A DNA stretch of 5,372 nt, from IMG/VR virus record IMGVR_UViG_2778261418_000009, positions 1-5,372 of that record, one strand, 5' to 3'. The notes under the pieces were generated by a model. That model had not been told where the DNA came from, searched no databases, and saw only the letters and a program-made list of their open reading frames with translations. Positions within the stretch are counted from its first letter, which is position 1. Every line of letters begins with the position of its first letter. The position numbers and the translations under genes were made by a program. This DNA comes from a virus. Taxonomy: Duplodnaviria > Heunggongvirae > Uroviricota > Caudoviricetes. Positions 1-5,372 of this stretch are shown here, one piece after another.

Positions 1-268
1 CATTGGCAAAGGCTGCACGCAACCCGGCCTTAATTTCCTCTACCTCATCAGCACCTGGCGATGAATCTGACAGTGCGCGATGGAATGCGTAAGCCATGTC
101 GTCGTTGATTTCTACAGGCACACTATCAGCCTTGCGGCGCTCCTGTAGCTCGCGCAGAGCCGCTACAACATAATGGCTATTGTGCTGGTCAGCCCACAGA
201 ATGAGCCGAATCAACGTTGCATTTGAAACGTATTCGTCTGTTAGTTTGCTATTGGTAAAAGTCGTCAT
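1..268 (-). CDS. Hypothetical phage protein, 5' portion only (start at 268, continues past the left edge)
   Basis: ATG at 266..268 (- strand) overlaps the HNH stop as ATGA. Upstream SD-like GAAGGGG. Frame stays open to position 1 (about 89 codons, MTTFTNSKLTDEYVSNATLIRLILWADQHNSHYVVAALRELQERRKA...). No motif recognised. Not in the ORF track because no stop lies inside the window. Confidence 0.45.
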   Translation of the reverse strand, partial: MTTFTNSKLTDEYVSNATLIRLILWADQHNSHYVVAALRELQERRKADSVPVEINDDMAYAFHRALSDSSPGADEVEEIKAGLRAAFAN

Positions 269-630
269 GCCGTAGCCCCTTCTTGATATTTTTCAAACCA
301 GAACACAACCGGGTCAGATTTCATTTCAACCAACCCCATACGAACCAGCGCTTTGCCTTTCCCGGACGCAAGGAATTCACGACGACCATCACTGATAATT
401 CGCCGATAATCTTCCAGGCTACTGCAATGCTTATGCAGATTGCATGGGTGGCATGCCGGAACCATGTTGGATATATCGTCACGTTCCTGGTGAAGCATAT
501 TTCCATCAAAACGAATGACCGGTTTTACATGGTCTGCATGCCACTTTTCGCCAAGTTCGCAGCCGCAATAAGCGCAGCGACCACCAAACTTCATGCGCAG
601 TTCTGCACGTTGTTTTTTCGTCAGTGCCAT
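265..630 (-). CDS. HNH endonuclease (121 aa)
   Basis: Within track ORF 265..720, but the start is placed at the internal ATG 628..630 because it is preceded by SD AAGGAAGG at about 5 nt spacing and sits 1 nt after the upstream gene's stop. Translation contains a classical HNH metal-finger layout: CAYCG ... HADHVKP ... N ... ACHPCNLHK. Confidence 0.8.
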   Translation of the reverse strand: MALTKKQRAELRMKFGGRCAYCGCELGEKWHADHVKPVIRFDGNMLHQERDDISNMVPACHPCNLHKHCSSLEDYRRIISDGRREFLASGKGKALVRMGLVEMKSDPVVFWFEKYQEGATA

Positions 631-631
631 A

Positions 632-850
632 TCAGCCTTCCTTATATGGATTAATTTTATTGTGTAGTGCGTTGAACGACGCCCATACCACGTCGTTATA
701 CAATTCAATAACTGGCTCAATTATTTTCCCGATTGCCCAGATAAAAATTAGCGGGGATATCGGTATCATCAACACGATAAACAGAATGAGAAACATGATT
801 TCTATTGTTCTGCTTCTTCGCGGGTATTCTTTTCTGAATAATGTAGGCAC
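632..850 (-). CDS. Small membrane protein (72 aa, one predicted transmembrane helix)
   Basis: Track ORF 632..850. GTG start preceded by SD AAAGGAGAG. Basic N-terminus (RKEYPRRSR) followed by a hydrophobic stretch IMFLILFIVLMIPISPLIFIWAIG. Stop TGA at 632..634 lies 1 nt before the HNH ATG. Confidence 0.45.
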   Translation of the reverse strand: MPTLFRKEYPRRSRTIEIMFLILFIVLMIPISPLIFIWAIGKIIEPVIELYNDVVWASFNALHNKINPYKEG

Positions 851-851
851 A

Positions 852-1040
852 TCACTCTCCTTTAGTGCGCAAGTGGCTTTTCCAGCGGTTTTGCGCCGCG
901 CTGGGCTTTTTGCAACAGCTGTGACCCATCACCCCGCAACACCCCGTCAACCTCACTCGTCTGTTACTAATCCTCAACCATCGCCAGACCCCAACACCGT
1001 TTCTGCGAGCTAACAGAATCTTTGCTTTACGGTTTTTCAT
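852..1040 (-). CDS. Small highly basic Cys-rich protein (62 aa)
   Basis: Track ORF 852..1040. ATG at 1038..1040 preceded by SD AGGAGAG. By my count 17 Lys/Arg and 1 acidic residue. Motif CC-x6-CC (GCCGVMGHSCCKK). Its stop is embedded in the RBS of the next gene. Comparable in size and charge to small nin-region proteins of lambdoid phages (analogy only). Confidence 0.4.
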   Translation of the reverse strand: MKNRKAKILLARRNGVGVWRWLRISNRRVRLTGCCGVMGHSCCKKPSAAQNRWKSHLRTKGE

Positions 1041-1207
1041 CGTTTTGCTCTCCTGCGTTTCTTTGCTGCACGTCGCGCCGCTGCAATACCGGTATGGCGC
1101 TTTGGTGCCGGGATAATATTGTCAGCCATCATGACATGTGGAATAACTGTTAATGACGACGCCCCAAACCGCACCAGATACGGCAATAAACAATTTTCCA
1201 TCCGCAT
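1037..1207 (-). CDS. Small protein with a poly-basic C-terminal tail (56 aa); below the track length cutoff
   Basis: Hand translation of the - strand: ATG at 1205..1207 preceded by GAGGTGA; product MRMENCLLPYLVRFGASSLTVIPHVMMADNIIPAPKRHTGIAAARRAAKKRRRAKR; stop TGA at 1037..1039 overlaps the ATG of the 62-aa gene (ATGA). Could still be spurious. Confidence 0.3.
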   Translation of the reverse strand: MRMENCLLPYLVRFGASSLTVIPHVMMADNIIPAPKRHTGIAAARRAAKKRRRAKR

Positions 1208-1283
1208 TTCTCACCTCAATTGATCTGAATATCAGTAATTGTTTGTTGCAACCATTCTTTAGTTAGTTCTGCCATTTTTATTA

Positions 1284-1335
1284 CCGCCCTTTCGGGCGGC
1301 CTCCGGATGATTTGAGGGTGCAGGAATCCCTCCGG
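1284..1335 (-). other. Structured intergenic element: GC hairpin with a GAAA tetraloop on the transcribed (-) strand, plus a second weaker hairpin
   Basis: 1284..1299 is ccgccc-tttc-gggcgg on +, which is CCGCCC-GAAA-GGGCGG on the - strand (6-bp GC stem, GNRA-type loop). 1314..1332 is gaggg-N9-ccctc. ctccgg occurs twice (1301..1306, 1330..1335). No U-tract follows on either strand. Lies in the roughly 200-bp gap between two - strand gene blocks. Confidence 0.3.
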
Positions 1336-1404
1336 TTAAGGATTTAATAAAAACCACTTCTGATTTAAATTTTCAGTGTTTTGTTGCCAGGTGATTTATC
1401 GCCT

Positions 1405-1716
1405 TTACGCTTCAGCCTTATTTCGCAACCAGACACAAACCGGGCCATCTTCGGTGTCATGTATTGAACCAATAAACCATCCATCGCCCTCTGGTCGTTC
1501 CGGTTTCCAGGAGGCAATATCGGGACCATCTGCGTCCAGATTAAAATCATCTTCATCCATAGTTCTGATGGTCCACTGAAGATTATTTTCCTCCATCCAT
1601 GCGTTAAACTCTTCCGTTGAAATATGTTCTCTACCATCACAGAATTTTTCATATTCAGGATGCGTCCAGCAGCCATATTCATCACGTACTACTGGTATTT
1701 CTTTAATTTCATTCAT
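1405..1716 (-). CDS. Strongly acidic, Trp-rich small protein (103 aa), function unknown
   Basis: Track ORF 1405..1716. ATG preceded by GGGAG and overlapping the upstream gene's end by 8 nt. By my count 26 Asp/Glu against 9 Lys/Arg, and 6 Trp. The overlapping alternative-frame ORF 1365..1685 lacks these signals. Confidence 0.6.
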   Translation of the reverse strand: MNEIKEIPVVRDEYGCWTHPEYEKFCDGREHISTEEFNAWMEENNLQWTIRTMDEDDFNLDADGPDIASWKPERPEGDGWFIGSIHDTEDGPVCVWLRNKAEA

Positions 1717-1963
1717 TTCTATTCTCCCACGTTTTCAGACTTTCACCACAGAACGGACAAAATGAAACCCGCACTGGTGATTTAGAAAATTCACCGGAAC
1801 GCAACATCACCAAATCAGGGCCGCGAGTTAAACTCTCATTCCAGATTTTGTATATCAGCAGACCTTTTCGCGTCGTGTATTCAGCATCATGCTCAAGGGC
1901 TTTTGCCAGTGCCGCACATGGTTCTATCTGATTGCCATTAACCTGGCATTTTGATTCACTCAC
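1709..1963 (-). CDS. Small protein with four Cys (84 aa), possible zinc-ribbon; function unknown
   Basis: Track ORF 1709..1963. GTG start preceded by GGAGGAGG and overlapping the upstream stop (GTGA). Cys at positions 6, 16, 69 and 72 (C-x9-C ... CPFC). Confidence 0.5.
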   Translation of the reverse strand: MSESKCQVNGNQIEPCAALAKALEHDAEYTTRKGLLIYKIWNESLTRGPDLVMLRSGEFSKSPVRVSFCPFCGESLKTWENRNE

Positions 1964-2382
1964 CGCACCTCCTCCTCAAAATTCCCCTGATAAAACGCCA
2001 GTACGTGCTGCATAGCTTCACTCTTCCGGCACTCGCGACAGATTATGTTTAGGCGCCTGTCGTAGCGGCGTATTTCGCCGTCTGGTAACGACCAGATAAG
2101 GTCCGGATCAACTACTGCAGGTTTCTTCACCTTTGTCCTTGAGAGTTTTTTGCGGGCATTTTGCCAGTCCTTACGAGCCTGTTCAGACGGGAATAACCCG
2201 TAACCAGAGTTGTATACATCGCCACTGGCAACCAGCTCTCTGGCAAGAACGCTCATCAGATATCTTGTCGCACCTGTCTTGGCTTCCAGTTGCCGTAACG
2301 TCTCGCGCCCACTCTGGCGTACGAATTCAACAACCTGCCCTTTAATTTTTTCCCGCTCTTCTTGTGTAAAAACTTTTGCCAC
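1960..2382 (-). CDS. Hypothetical early-region protein (140 aa) with a possible HTH-like N-terminal segment
   Basis: Track ORF 1960..2382. GTG start at 2380..2382 preceded by GGAGGA. Segment ETLRQLEAKTGATRYLMSVLARELV looks helix-turn-helix-like by eye (inference only). CxxC (CRECR) near the C-terminus. Sits directly downstream of the initiator gene. Confidence 0.55.
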   Translation of the reverse strand: MAKVFTQEEREKIKGQVVEFVRQSGRETLRQLEAKTGATRYLMSVLARELVASGDVYNSGYGLFPSEQARKDWQNARKKLSRTKVKKPAVVDPDLIWSLPDGEIRRYDRRLNIICRECRKSEAMQHVLAFYQGNFEEEVR

Positions 2383-2422
2383 AAGTCCTCCTGAAAATTA
2401 CCTCATGACCAGAAATCAACAC

Positions 2423-3493
2423 TTACCCCCTGAAGCCCGGTGGAATTTCGGTATCCGGTTCAGAAATATGATTCACACAACGCTGGTTGTTCGTGCCGCT
2501 TACCGGGAGCAACCAGGGGTTCTCAAAATTCCGGTCCGGTCCAAAAAACGTCGTCGCTCGCTGAACAAATTCCGTTCCCGTTTTCCCGGTAGCCGCCAGG
2601 TATCTTGCGTAACGCCTCACGCCATCCAGCATGGCCTCTGGTGGCACCCCCTCGCGTAATCTGGCCTTCCAGGCACTGAAAGCGGATTTCTTCGGATTTG
2701 CCCCGGCACGCAACGGGTACTCCCGCCAGACCTGTTCGAACACATCCGGATAATCCACTCGTCTCACAGGCTGCCCGGTGTTTTCCGGGACTACCCGATC
2801 GGCTTCCCGCTGAATGGAGGAATCGGCTTCAGGCTGCTGCAGTTGGTGTGATTGCTCCGGCCTTGCGGTCATCACCTGCTGCACAGCGCCCGAATCGGCT
2901 TTCAGCGCATACGCTGAATCGGCTTCCGGTGTCGTGCCTGCTGGCTGACCAGGATTGACGGTCTGAACATCCCCTGCCTGGTTCGTGGCGTTTTTTACGC
3001 CATGGACCATAGTGTTTTGATCTTCTTGATCTGTATCTTTATCTGTATCTTTATCTGTCGTGACTCGTCGTGACATGTGCGTGACATTTCGTGACGCGCC
3101 GTGACAATCTCCATTTTGTTCCCGCTTTCTTTCCCTCTCTCGCTGCGCCCTCTTGCGCTCTGCCGGAGATTTTGCGGTTTGCGAAATATTGCCGTTGTCC
3201 TCTTTCAGCACCTGGCGTTTTTCCCATCCAGTGATTAAATCACCATCAAGTACCCGCCCCTGCATCGTCTGCAAAATTGAATCAATTACCTCTTCTGTCA
3301 CGTCGAGCGCACTTGCCAAATCTTCTGTCGTGACATCAATGTGACCTCGCGTGACATTTCGTGACGCGCTCACCAATAGGTGGATATACACTGCCATCAC
3401 TGTTGCAATTGGCTGCCCTGACACCCTGGCAATTGTTCGCCACTTAGGGTCATTTGGCATGTCATGCCATAATCTGAGCCAGGCGTTAGCCAT
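2423..3493 (-). CDS. Phage replication initiation protein (O-like; replisome-organizer-type N-terminus, conserved phage C-terminal domain), carrying internal iteron arrays
   Basis: Track ORF 2423..3499. Start preferred at ATG 3491..3493 (MANAWLRLWHDMPNDPKW...), preceded by AGAGGTGA; a GTG two codons upstream is the alternative. The N-terminal W-x-R-L-x3-M-x-N-D-P-K-W pattern resembles phage replisome-organizer N-domains (from memory, not searched). Charged low-complexity linker (ERKRAQRERERKREQ, TDKDTDKDTD). Direct repeats typical of an ori lie inside the gene. Confidence 0.7.
   Translation of the reverse strand: MANAWLRLWHDMPNDPKWRTIARVSGQPIATVMAVYIHLLVSASRNVTRGHIDVTTEDLASALDVTEEVIDSILQTMQGRVLDGDLITGWEKRQVLKEDNGNISQTAKSPAERKRAQRERERKREQNGDCHGASRNVTHMSRRVTTDKDTDKDTDQEDQNTMVHGVKNATNQAGDVQTVNPGQPAGTTPEADSAYALKADSGAVQQVMTARPEQSHQLQQPEADSSIQREADRVVPENTGQPVRRVDYPDVFEQVWREYPLRAGANPKKSAFSAWKARLREGVPPEAMLDGVRRYARYLAATGKTGTEFVQRATTFFGPDRNFENPWLLPVSGTNNQRCVNHISEPDTEIPPGFRG
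3029..3058. repeat. Five tandem copies of a 6-bp unit ATCTKT (A/T-rich), adjacent to iteron array 1
   Basis: atctgt atcttt atctgt atcttt atctgt read directly from the sequence. Encodes TDKDTDKDTD on the - strand. Two GATC sites lie just upstream (3019..3022, 3028..3031). Confidence 0.8.
3059..3105. repeat. Iteron-like array 1: five direct CGTGAC repeats at 10-11 bp phasing (candidate origin of replication)
   Basis: CGTGAC at 3059, 3069, 3080, 3090 and 3100 (start positions), read directly. One-helical-turn phasing inside the initiator gene matches the lambda arrangement of ori within O (established knowledge for lambda; inference here). Confidence 0.6.
3329..3365. repeat. Iteron-like array 2: four (C/T)GTGAC repeats at 10-11 bp phasing, including a 21-bp exact copy of part of array 1
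   Basis: Repeats start at 3329, 3340, 3350 and 3360. gcgtgacatttcgtgacgcgc is identical at 3079..3099 and 3349..3369. An inverted copy GTCACG lies at 3297..3302. Confidence 0.55.
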
Positions 3494-3564
3494 ACTCACC
3501 TCTTTTGATACCGAATCTTTTTACTCACAAATTGCCGGAAGTGATCTGGTATGAATATCGCGAG

Positions 3565-3990
3565 TCAATGCACAGCCACAATATTTCCTGCAGGGCCACC
3601 ACGATTCATCTGGTTGAAACCAGCGATCGCCACTGCGACAAAATCATCAGCGTCTCTCACCAGTCGTTCCCGCGTCTCCACTAGTTCCCGAAAATAGGCT
3701 GAGCTATGGCTGCGCATTCGGGCCACCAGCAGAGGCGGCATTGCTTTTTCGATAGCTGGTAACAACGCCTGAATTTTTTTAACCGCATCAGGGGTGTCTT
3801 TCTCCACCCAGCGGAAAATTTTCTGAGTATTGCGAGCCAGGGCTTCCGGATGGCTGTCGTCATACAGTTCCGGGAACGTCATTCCCAGCTCGAAATACGC
3901 TTTGGTAATTTTCGCAGCCGGTACTTTTTCGCCGTCCGGATGCGCCCAGGCATTCATCGCCATGCGGATATGTTCATGCTTGATTTTCAT
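3565..3990 (-). CDS. ydaT: YdaT-like protein (functional analogue of CII in Rac/CP-933P-type prophages), 141 aa
   Basis: Within track ORF 3565..4062. Start placed at the internal ATG 3988..3990 (MKIKHEHIRMAMNAW...) because of the strong SD AAGGGGGG about 5 nt upstream. It overlaps the end of the cro-like gene by 17 nt. Assignment rests on position (directly after cro) and on my recollection of the YdaT N-terminus; not verified by search. Confidence 0.6.
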   Translation of the reverse strand: MKIKHEHIRMAMNAWAHPDGEKVPAAKITKAYFELGMTFPELYDDSHPEALARNTQKIFRWVEKDTPDAVKKIQALLPAIEKAMPPLLVARMRSHSSAYFRELVETRERLVRDADDFVAVAIAGFNQMNRGGPAGNIVAVH

Positions 3991-4216
3991 GAATCCCCCC
4001 TTGGTTAGAAGGCGGATTATGATCAGAACCGGGAATGACAACCGTCGGTATGTGTAACTCATATTTGAGCGCCCCGGCAGTGACTGCCTGAATTAGCAAC
4101 GCCCATTTCCACGGAACCTCTTCCCCCCACATGCTGACTGTGGTTTTTGACGTTCCTAGAGCTGCGGCTGTTTTAACAACTCCGCCAAAATAGCCTAATA
4201 CTTCTGATTTTTTCAT
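3974..4216 (-). CDS. cro: Cro/YdaS-like HTH transcriptional regulator (80 aa)
   Basis: Within track ORF 3974..4264. Start placed at ATG 4214..4216 (MKKSEVLGYFGGVVKTAAALGTSKTTVSMWG...) with SD GGAG at about 7 nt; an ATG four codons upstream (4226..4228) has no SD. HTH signature GGVVKTAAALGTSKTTVSMW. Divergent from the cI-like gene across the operator region. Confidence 0.7.
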   Translation of the reverse strand: MKKSEVLGYFGGVVKTAAALGTSKTTVSMWGEEVPWKWALLIQAVTAGALKYELHIPTVVIPGSDHNPPSNQGGIHENQA

Positions 4217-4307
4217 GAGTCGCTCCATAAAACTGAACGCCAAAAGTTTAATAATCAAAACCAAAGAAAGTCAAGAAACAAAACCATCTGTGTTTTAAAA
4301 TCAAAAC
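4217..4307. promoter_or_regulatory. Divergent immunity control region (PR-like and PRM-like promoters with operator half-sites)
   Basis: A/T-rich 91-bp spacer between the divergent cro and cI starts. Repeated GTTTT/AAAAC half-sites form imperfect 16-18 bp palindromes (for example tGTTTTaaaatcAAAACa at 4291..4308 and GTTTaataatcAAAAC at 4246..4261), and aatcaaaac occurs twice (4253..4261, 4299..4307). - strand -35 TTGACT (complement of 4269..4274) with a weak -10 near 4248..4253. + strand -10 TAAAAT at 4295..4300, only 7 nt before the cI ATG, with no SD, which suggests a leaderless cI mRNA as in lambda PRM. Confidence 0.5.
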
Positions 4308-4946
4308 ATGAGCAAGCAAACAATATCTGAACGCATAACCCAACGTATGCATGCGCTAAACCTGAAAGGCAAAGACCTTGTCAATGCCACTGGCGCATCA
4401 AAAGGCTCCGTAAGTCAATGGATGAACGGTGGAGGAGCGCCGTCCTCGCGTTACATAAGTTCACTGGCAAAAATATTGAAAGTAAACGAAAATTGGCTTC
4501 TTAATGGAGGAGAGTTAAATACAGGTGATTCGCTTGATCTATCTTTACCGCCGATAAAAACGGTTCCGCTACTATCACTTCAGCAGGCAGCAAGCTGGAG
4601 TGATTATATGAAAAATTCCTCAATAACCTCTTGTGTGCAGCTTGTCGGAGAAATCCCGGCCAATACCTTTGCAGTTGTTCTAGAGAGTGACAGTATGTCA
4701 ACATCTGGTGGGGGAGTTTCCATCCCAAATGGTTCAACAGTTTTTGTTGATCCCGATCGAACCGTACAACCAGGAAATATTGTCCTTGCCTTACCCAAAG
4801 GGACCACAACACCTGTCATTCGTAAACTGGAGATAGAAGGGCCGGATATTCTTTTAGTCCCCACGAATCCTCGCTACCCTTCAATTATGCTGGATGATCT
4901 ATCTTGCATATTGGGCGTATGCTTTAAAATTCAACAAGATATTTAA
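4308..4946 (+). CDS. cI: cI-like prophage repressor (N-terminal HTH_XRE, C-terminal S24 LexA-type peptidase), 212 aa
   Basis: Track ORF 4308..4946. HTH segment LKGKDLVNATGASKGSVSQWMNG. C-terminal domain has the Ser nucleophile context ESDSMS and the downstream Lys in VIRKLEIEG, as in LexA and lambda cI. No SD before the ATG. Confidence 0.88.
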   Translation: MSKQTISERITQRMHALNLKGKDLVNATGASKGSVSQWMNGGGAPSSRYISSLAKILKVNENWLLNGGELNTGDSLDLSLPPIKTVPLLSLQQAASWSDYMKNSSITSCVQLVGEIPANTFAVVLESDSMSTSGGGVSIPNGSTVFVDPDRTVQPGNIVLALPKGTTTPVIRKLEIEGPDILLVPTNPRYPSIMLDDLSCILGVCFKIQQDI

Positions 4947-4974
4947 CCGACCTCATCTATTTGATTAACTGTAT

Positions 4975-4991
4975 GCCATCGTGGTGATGGC
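4975..4991 (+). other. Perfect 6-bp-arm palindrome gccatc-gtggt-gatggc downstream of cI (possible weak terminator or protein-binding site)
   Basis: Read directly; lies 29 nt after the cI stop. No clear U-tract follows, so intrinsic-terminator function is uncertain. Confidence 0.25.
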
Positions 4992-5030
4992 TTAACAGCT
5001 GCCTGCTTAAAATGTTTTGATAAAAAAACA

Positions 5031-5059
5031 TTGACCTGAAAAGTTCATTTTTCTAAACT
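5031..5059 (+). promoter_or_regulatory. Candidate sigma70 promoter for the gene downstream of cI
   Basis: TTGACC (5031..5036), 17-nt spacer, TAAACT (5054..5059); an A/T-rich UP-like tract aaaatgttttgataaaaaaaca lies immediately upstream. Confidence 0.4.
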
Positions 5060-5238
5060 TCATTCATTCCCTCTCCCCACCCCACAGAATGCAGGGCAAT
5101 ACTTCGAGTTACCAGGCAGTGGTCAGGGGTTAAGTAGCCAGCCCGAGGCGTAAGAACATGACGGCAGGGTTCAACTTTAATAACTATGCAGCAGGTTTTT
5201 GTTCCGCTACCCCGGCGTTAAGGGGAAATGAGGTCAGC

Positions 5239-5372
5239 ATGGATACTATCGATCTTGACAACAGCGAATCTCTGGTATGTGGCGTGTTCCCCAACCAGGA
5301 CGGTACGTTCACCGCGATGACGTATACCAAAAGCAAAACGTTTAAAACCGAAAATGGTGCCCGTCGCTGGCT
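5239..5372 (+). CDS. Unrecognised protein in the rex/sieB-equivalent slot, N-terminal part only (runs off the right edge)
   Basis: ATG 5239 preceded by GAGGT at about 5 nt. Frame open to the window end (MDTIDLDNSESLVCGVFPNQDGTFTAMTYTKSKTFKTENGARRW...). An in-frame ATG at 5158 with a weaker SD (GAGG, about 9 nt) is an alternative start. Not in the ORF track because no stop lies inside the window. Confidence 0.5.
   Translation, partial: MDTIDLDNSESLVCGVFPNQDGTFTAMTYTKSKTFKTENGARRW

Follow-up and report, generated by a model that had tools for sequence, protein, structure and literature searches.

Can a phage replication origin be written twice into the gene of the protein that acts on it? The question is raised by a 5372-nucleotide stretch of DNA (hereafter the window; IMG/VR record IMGVR_UViG_2778261418_000009, Caudoviricetes, positions 1–5372), which represents the immunity and early-right or replication region of a lambdoid Escherichia coli prophage. 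The window encodes on its minus strand a predicted replication initiator of 358 amino acids (aa). Within this gene, a first-pass annotation made from the letters alone had pointed to a 21-bp repeat present twice, and had proposed either a bipartite origin with two clusters of initiator-binding repeats (iterons) or a segmental duplication able to mediate an in-frame deletion of 90 codons. The comparative evidence presented here indicates that the two clusters probably constitute a bipartite iteron origin within the initiator's own gene, and the duplication proposal has to be given up.

Two arrays of a short repeat in the initiator gene

The 21-mer GCGTGACATTTCGTGACGCGC is found exactly at positions 3079–3099 and 3349–3369, with an offset of 270 bp. 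There are no further matches with three or fewer mismatches in the window, and two copies were obtained in 0 of 200 shuffles. Each copy lies, as first described, in a phased (C/T)GTGAC array (table 1). In array A, GTGAC starts on the plus strand at 3060, 3070, 3081, 3091 and 3101 (spacings of 10, 11, 10 and 10 bp), and in array B at 3330, 3341, 3351 and 3361 (spacings of 11, 10 and 10 bp). Eight of these nine direct copies read CGTGAC and one TGTGAC; on the coding strand, CGTGAC becomes GTCACG. With one opposite-strand copy at 3297–3301, they account for 10 of the 14 occurrences of GTGAC in the 5.4-kb window, the other four lying elsewhere. The opposite-strand copy is a single inverted iteron that follows array B, in gene direction, after about 33 nt and codes for D-V-T (aa 66–68). 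The first copy of array A is separated by 229 bp from the last direct copy of array B and by about 196 bp from the inverted copy.

Array B codes for aa 45–57 (ASRNVTRGHIDVT) and array A for CHGASRNVTHMSRRVT, in the linker of the protein. The two related peptides SASRNVTRGHIDVTTED and GASRNVTHMSRRVTTDKDT that the first-pass annotation had listed are present in the translation of the open reading frame (ORF). On the coding strand, GTCAC is used in three frames, gcG TCA Cga (ASR/MSR), GTC ACg (VT) and gGT CAC or tGT CAC (GH/CH); the repeat thus extends further in the DNA than in the peptide, and only a part of each array codes for the shared peptide. The spacing of 10–11 nt, together with the use of three frames, means that the periodicity belongs to the DNA and not to the codons.

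Array A adjoins an AT-rich run with three tandem copies of TCTTTATCTGTA at 3024–3059 on the plus strand, which are GATAAAGATACA repeats on the coding strand and code for DKDTDKDTD. The GC minimum of the whole initiator gene (0.30, at 3020–3059) is located here. Array B has no AT-rich neighbour of its own. The 12-bp tandem repeat coding for DKDT differs in length among E. coli prophages, with record spans of 504 and 522 bp compared with 510 bp in the window. The order of iterons, AT-rich run and palindrome (table 1) recalls the lambda origin; the palindrome sits in the exchangeable C-terminal module described below.

Conservation of the two-array layout

A protein search with the N-terminal 170 aa of the initiator yielded 1160 relatives, and a scan of one genome per species provided 58 nucleotide loci, of which 22 have the layout with the GTCACG motif. 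In these 22 loci, a first cluster of four coding-strand GTCAC copies lies near +128, +138, +148 and +159 from the start codon, at the same codons as in the window, and a second cluster of three to six copies lies near +380 to +420. Neighbouring copies are 10 or 11 nt apart in 121 of 131 cases. An inverted GTGAC copy follows the fourth copy of array B by about 33 nt (near +192) in most loci of this class. A GATA-type AT-rich run stands directly after array A in 21 of the 22, with AGATAAAGATAAAGA or a run beginning with AGATAAAGA in most and AGATAAGA or AGATTAGATAAGA in a few; the exception, L026, has a degenerate purine run only.

The 22 loci range in GC from 0.34 to 0.63. They come from Escherichia/Shigella, Serratia, Rahnella, Scandinavium, Superficieibacter, Erwinia, Pseudomonas, Entomomonas, Gilvimarinus, Stenotrophomonas, Bordetella, Acidovorax, Aquitalea, Chromobacterium and unclassified metagenome-assembled genomes (MAGs) of Pseudomonadota. 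Two isolated phages, Aeromonas pAEv1818 and the Detrevirus Pseudomonas phi1, have the same arrangement. Conservation of both arrays extends over Gamma- and Betaproteobacteria, and loci with variant hexamers show this layout in Alphaproteobacteria, in Acidobacteria and in a Planctomycete MAG.

In the protein alignments, the segments LLVsASRNVTRGHvDVT and CHxxSRNVTtDKDKDKD are kept across genera, with unrelated C-terminal halves. The N-terminal 160 aa and both arrays form one module that is joined to different C-terminal partners. Such joint travel is expected if a domain and its sites must stay together. The mosaic joint falls right after the putative origin (window position about 3020, aa about 160). 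Shigella phage 75/02 Stx (L002, 3001–3482) presents the reverse combination: its C-terminal 200 aa are shared (64% identity), and its N-terminal 160 aa are unrelated and carry repeats of their own, with dnaC downstream. Many homologues (L009, L013, L015, L016, L024 and L062) have paired C-tracts, CCCCCC-N3-5-CCCCCC coding for PPLxPP, directly after the GATAAA run; these may be a DNA element or the mere start of one type of C-terminal module.

This distribution bears on the idea that the repeat is a recent segmental duplication or gene-conversion tract of this phage lineage, with an in-frame 270-bp deletion as its chief consequence. The first-pass annotation had also considered that the second array might be unique to this sequence, which the 22 species-level loci and the two isolated phages contradict: the two-array layout is ancient and occurs in distant Proteobacteria. 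It is true that the 21-bp identity is the longest string common to both arrays in any of the 22 loci (range 7–21 nt), being reached in the window and its Shigella twin, and that the arrays resize in 21-bp steps, i.e. two iterons or seven codons. Five other loci, however, have shared strings of 17 nt (GTCACGCAATGTCACGC or CGTCACGAAATGTCACG), and the 21-bp identity is a two-iteron unit plus a few flanking bases. No step smaller than 21 bp would preserve the reading frame and, approximately, the helical phase as well. Array A of the window has an extra HMSRRVT relative to most homologues, and alleles of Escherichia albertii and of the O157 type have an extra TCHGVSL in array B. Homogenisation between the arrays in the E. 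coli lineage is possible and is not needed to explain the identity.

Deletion variants were not found among the best matches either. Of 5426 complete E. coli genomes, 2078 (2080 records) carry the module, and with the best place taken per record (389 secondary places left out) all 2080 best matches cover at least 80% of positions 2990–3499, without a single 270-bp deletion allele; among the E. coli matches listed, the length variants are −6 and +12 bp only. A deletion of 90 codons would moreover remove most of the winged-helix domain described below. A recent duplication of this kind is, in our judgement, very improbable.

Selection on the DNA sequence of both arrays

The repeats could also be a by-product of a conserved peptide repeat (xASRNVT...VT), the DNA having no function of its own; the first-pass annotation had named such codon constraints as an outcome that would count against an origin. 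Both peptide motifs are indeed conserved across many genera, and the ASRNVT unit is in the same frame in both arrays. We therefore compared the codons used by the 22 loci at conserved residues inside and outside the motif.

In an invariant N-terminal control segment, third positions are 45% identical between species and the codons are mixed (Leu: CTC 7, CTG 4, TTA 3, CTT 3; Gly: GGC 9, GGG 8, GGT 4, GGA 1). The codons that overlap the motif are nearly fixed: Ala GCG in 19/22; Ser TCA in 19/21 and 21/21; Val GTC in 21/21 at each of three positions; Thr ACG in 21/21 and 20/21; Gly GGT in 21/21; His CAC in 21/21 and 19/19. The Val codon of the inverted iteron is GTG in all 15 other species with that residue, and the Asp codon of the AT-rich run is GAT in 18/18. 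The normalised codon entropy is 0.125 for the conserved codons that overlap the motif and 0.819 for the 59 other conserved codons (Mann–Whitney p = 3e-8). Circularity was avoided by defining the motif columns on one reference only and scoring them in the 20 other species, where the reference codon is kept in 89% of cases in motif columns compared with 41% elsewhere (p = 1.3e-6).

Selection on the peptide cannot freeze synonymous codons across genomes of 34–63% GC, and both arrays are consequently under purifying selection at the DNA level. Fixation of GTC, ACG, GGT, CAC and TCA in 19–21 of 21 loci over this GC range excludes codon constraints as the source of the pattern. The motif is also found in frames that give other residues (GH, CH, MSR), its spacing of 10–11 nt is no multiple of three, and array A lies in a predicted disordered linker. 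We regard a mere by-product of the peptide as extremely unlikely.

Joint change of the motif in the two arrays

In the more distant homologues GTCACG is absent, and a different hexamer recurs at both places with an unchanged period. A GTAACG class includes Pantoea, Enterobacter, Marinobacter, an Acidobacteriaceae MAG and Sphingomonas; a CGAACG class includes Methylibium, Janthinobacterium, Massilia, Collimonas, Variovorax, Acidovorax, Kordiimonas, Sphingobium, Terracidiphilus and a Gemmataceae MAG. One MAG (L056) has GTGACG in both arrays, plus copies of CGAACG in array B. When the commonest NNNACG hexamer was determined independently for each array in 50 loci, the two arrays gave the same hexamer in 37 (GTCACG in 21, CGAACG in 11 and GTAACG in 5). 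In 2000 trials of random pairing, 13 loci matched on average and never more than 21. The Enterobacter locus (L023) carries CGTTAC as its inverted copy behind array B, in keeping with its own GTAACG motif. The motif thus changes jointly in both arrays. The alignment of homologues suggested by the first-pass annotation therefore returned two conserved arrays, with fixed synonymous sites and a shared motif.

The winged-helix domain hardly differs between the GTCACG and CGAACG classes. Inside the folded domain (aa 7–95), only aa 49, 50 and 53, all coded by array B, tell the two classes apart. The other discriminating positions fall in aa 103–119, which include a 9-aa indel and the basic helix (Q119 versus W). 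A strict screen for residues that separate all three motif classes gave none, and the few positions from the two-class screen are confounded with phylogeny. It is conceivable, though we think it quite unlikely, that array B encodes a loop (aa 47–57) that helps the initiator to read the iteron, such that a change in the repeat would alter both the site and its reader. If true, this would explain how the module switches among GTCACG, GTAACG and CGAACG with a winged-helix domain otherwise near invariant. Two points count against it: the classes coincide with clades, and winged helices do not usually read their sites with this loop.

The initiator and its predicted structure

The best PHROG match of the initiator is phrog_3729, 'replication initiation protein' (E 1e-256). 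Its gene is 98–99% identical to genes of the Escherichia phages Tritos, Evi, vB_EcoS-689R5 and others, in which it is annotated as 'DNA replication protein O', 'N-terminal phage replisome organiser' or 'primosomal protein I'; the RefSeq name is 'phage replisome organizer'. Replisome-organizer PHROG families match the initiator at E 5e-6 and 2e-4, and DnaD-like families also occur further down the list; any homology to replisome organizers is remote. From its N terminus, the protein appears to comprise a winged-helix-like domain, a basic helix and a disordered linker, followed by a C-terminal half that is DnaD/DnaT-like.

An AlphaFold2 (AF2) model of aa 1–170, built from 69 sequences, has a mean predicted local distance difference test score (pLDDT) of 71.5. 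It shows a confident helical winged-helix-like domain (helices 4–13, 18–27, 31–47, 58–65 and 69–79, and a beta-hairpin at about 80–91), a helix at 112–129 and disorder from residue 133 on. The basic helix (aa 112–129) is a possible second DNA-contacting element. In the model, array B codes for the end of helix 31–47 and the loop or strand 48–57, the inverted copy (aa 66–68) falls between two helices, and array A and the DKDT run code for the disordered linker, with a pLDDT below 50 over the array A segment. A disordered linker and a helix end with its loop are places where coding constraints can yield to those of the DNA.

The last 22 or so residues of the initiator resemble the C-terminal tail of the host primosomal protein DnaT (NF002770, E 0.0016; PDB entries 6aep, 2ru8 and 9zbt, E 0.02–0.07). 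The same DnaT-like tail closes homologues whose C-terminal halves otherwise differ. An NCBIfam search of the initiator gave only a sub-threshold match to TIGR01714 and the matches to the DnaT tail, and a search of PDB sequences only the short similarity to this tail.

A probable bipartite origin within the initiator gene

We infer that the initiator is the factor that binds the arrays and that the segment of about 360 bp at 3010–3369 serves the phage as replication origin, inside the very gene that encodes the initiator. The N-terminal winged-helix domain would bind the GTCACG hexamers, whose spacing of 10–11 bp would place them on one face of the helix. Binding to the five sites of array A would set the complex beside the AT-rich GATAAA/GATACA run, where the duplex would melt, and the C-terminal DnaD/DnaT-like half would bring the host helicase machinery to the opened run. 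Array A and the AT-rich run would in this way form a lambda-like core, the functional counterpart of lambda ori. Array B, with its four direct sites and one inverted site in the region coding for the DNA-binding domain, would be a second cluster for the same protein, with an auxiliary or regulatory function. Its likeliest role is cooperation with array A, with the DNA looped or wrapped into a larger initiation complex; it may instead tune initiation by titration, by handcuffing in cis or as a roadblock on the initiator's own transcript.

Several observations weigh against this bipartite origin. The three or four motif classes are also clades, and few independent switches therefore lie behind the covariation. 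No Pfam family, the lambda O and Rep families included, matches the initiator at E ≤ 0.01, and TIGR01714 (phage_rep_org_N) scores 15.4 bits for a cut-off of 49.8 (E 0.016). Foldseek comparison of the AF2 model with the PDB returned only non-significant winged-helix regulators (among them MepR and CRP; all E > 0.3) and gave no structural family, and the assignment of DNA binding to the N-terminal domain depends on the PHROG annotation and the predicted fold. The literature searched gave neither binding or footprint results nor tests of origin activity for this family. The set of homologues was seeded on two invariant N-terminal peptides and hence samples one subfamily. Within this set, array B is absent in L035 (an Edaphobacter MAG) and L052 (Novosphingobium), and L027, L029 and L041 have no clear iterons; among the exceptions, three low-GC loci show the GATAAA run only. 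As far as these loci indicate, array A with its AT-rich run is close to universal, and array B is usual but dispensable in some lineages.

In the two loci that lack array B, array A is enlarged, with seven copies of CGAACG in L035 and five of GGAACG in L052. This may be a compensation and hints at a shared pool of sites, on the strength of two loci. Two other elements, L042 (Serratia MAG) and L057 (Pantoea), join this N-terminal domain to another downstream part and lack the basic helix, the linker and recognisable arrays; their origin may be located elsewhere.

The absence of array B from L035 and L052, and its lack of an AT-rich neighbour, would also fit a different role: both arrays might serve another factor (a host protein or another phage regulator), or array B might be purely an autoregulatory operator or roadblock outside the origin. 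Binding by the initiator is itself deduced from sequence, and in plasmids P1 and F the second iteron array acts in copy-number control and not in initiation. Against another factor, the motif class tracks the N-terminal module across host phyla, whatever the unrelated C-terminal half and the differing neighbour genes, which argues in particular against a host factor. The two arrays also share motif and orientation, and DnaA boxes are absent nearby: a scan of the window gave chance-level matches, none of them near the arrays. Scans for promoters and terminators likewise gave nothing above the expectation from shuffles, and one promoter-like match at 3081–3108 consists of the iterons themselves. 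We consider another factor, or a purely regulatory array B, unlikely.

Finally, the repeats could act in RNA, as an mRNA structure or a site for an RNA-binding protein that controls translation of the initiator. GUCACG and the inverted CGUGAC could pair, and the minimum-free-energy structure of the array B mRNA segment uses this pairing. The folding z-scores are, however, only −0.5 to −1.8 for both arrays and both strands, and there is no Rfam match in the window. The phasing of 10–11 nt, the adjoining AT-rich run and the location fit iteron origins in DNA. The RNA-structure reading was dropped because of its z-scores, and we attach hardly any weight to a function in RNA.

Gene context

The features of the window are listed in table 1. 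From right to left, the gene order is a CI-like repressor, a P22-Cro-like gene, a YdaT/CII-like gene and the initiator, followed leftward by a DUF977/Ren-like gene, small ORFs and an HNH/NinG-like endonuclease gene, the last being ordinary for a nin region. There is no gene for a P- or DnaC-like helicase loader after the initiator within the window, where the DUF977/Ren-like gene stands instead. A DnaC- or helicase-like gene does follow the initiator in Shigella phage 75/02 Stx and in Aeromonas pAEv1818. The DnaT-like tail, together with the lack of a loader gene downstream, suggests that the initiator uses host restart or primosome proteins directly.

Table 1. Genes and DNA elements of the window (positions from its first nucleotide).
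Feature	Position	Strand	Remarks
S24/helix–turn–helix CI-like repressor gene	4308–4946	+	rightmost gene named in the right-to-left order
P22-Cro-like gene	3974–4216	−	
YdaT/CII-like gene	3565–3990	−	
Replication initiator gene (predicted), 358 aa	2423–3499	−	ORF; phrog_3729 match; annotation of near-identical phage genes; AF2 model
21-bp repeat, copy 2	3349–3369	.	two-iteron unit inside array B
Array B, four direct iterons (putative)	3329–3365	−	CGTGAC/TGTGAC (plus strand) at 3329–3334, 3340–3345, 3350–3355, 3360–3365
Single inverted iteron (putative)	3297–3302	+	plus strand GTCACG, coding strand CGTGAC
Coding sequence of basic helix, aa 112–129	3113–3166	−	AERKRAQRERERKREQ; between winged-helix domain and array A; AF2
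21-bp repeat, copy 1	3079–3099	.	two-iteron unit inside array A
Array A, five direct iterons (putative)	3059–3105	−	CGTGAC (plus strand) at 3059, 3069, 3080, 3090, 3100
AT-rich, purine-skewed run	3010–3058	−	GATAAAGATACAGATAAAGATACAGAT; directly after array A in gene direction; presumed DNA-unwinding element
Palindrome, 13-nt arms, 5-nt loop	2979–3009	.	just past AT-rich run, then T-run; possible part of origin
Coding sequence of DnaT-like tail, aa 336–358	2423–2491		NHISEPDTEIPPGFRG
DUF977/Ren-like gene	1960–2382		
HNH/NinG-like endonuclease gene	265–630	−	left window end

Comparison with known origins

Lambda iterons are 19-bp sites with internal dyad symmetry. The lambda origin, in the middle of gene O, is one contiguous cluster of four iterons (six in Stx phages) with an AT-rich tract (PMC7466680), and the first-pass annotation rightly noted that two clusters inside one initiator gene are not the lambda arrangement. 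The two systems are alike in having repeated initiator sites (predicted, in the present case) inside the initiator ORF, between the N-terminal DNA-binding and the C-terminal parts, followed by an AT-rich tract; in the exchange of N-terminal domain and origin together as a specificity module; and in the order of cI, cro, cII-like gene and initiator. They differ in the repeats, which here are direct with a 6-bp core every 10–11 bp and form two clusters whose nearest direct copies are 229 bp apart, one cluster being inside the sequence that codes for the DNA-binding domain; the single-cluster arrangement of approximately 19-bp dyad iterons is absent here. The initiator also has no Pfam match to lambda O and no P- or DnaC-like gene following it in the window.

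In phage SPP1, oriL consists of direct repeats and a DNA-unwinding element inside gene 38, the gene of the replisome organizer itself (PMC6316719). The system described here resembles that of the SPP1 protein G38P in the direct repeats and AT-rich candidate unwinding element within the organizer gene, as well as in the RefSeq name and the weak matches to replisome-organizer PHROG families. It differs in that the second set of sites of SPP1 (oriR) lies about 13 kb away with its own unwinding element, whereas the second array lies here in the same gene and has none, and in the low TIGR01714 score.

Two separated arrays of the same initiator-binding repeat are known next to the rep genes of plasmids P1 (incC/incA) and F (incB/incC), where one of the arrays adjoins the melting region. 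These arrays flank the rep gene in non-coding DNA, with iterons of 17–22 bp that bind RepA-type proteins of WH1–WH2 structure. The likeness in having two separated arrays with the same iteron suggests, by analogy, that control by looping, handcuffing or titration may operate in the phage family too. Unlike those of the plasmids, both arrays lie here in coding sequence, with shorter sites and a protein of another family: there is no Pfam Rep match, and the model has one winged-helix-like domain in place of WH1–WH2.

The element that appears to be new is the second intragenic cluster, placed in the sequence coding for the DNA-binding domain and covarying with the first. No published description of such a cluster or of this origin was found; the literature searched is incomplete and lacks most subscription journals, so this is weak evidence of novelty.

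Implications

If the two clusters do form a bipartite origin, protein-coding sequence can accommodate an origin in two places, in the region of a disordered linker, as in lambda, and again in the region coding for the DNA-binding domain. The DNA is constrained so strongly that codons stay frozen over genomes that range from 34 to 63% GC. For annotation and for analyses of evolutionary rates, this means that the apparent conservation of the peptide at such places is partly conservation of the DNA. The module is widespread, not only in E. coli but also in prophages across several phyla, and its three motif classes would represent a natural set of orthogonal pairs of initiator and origin.

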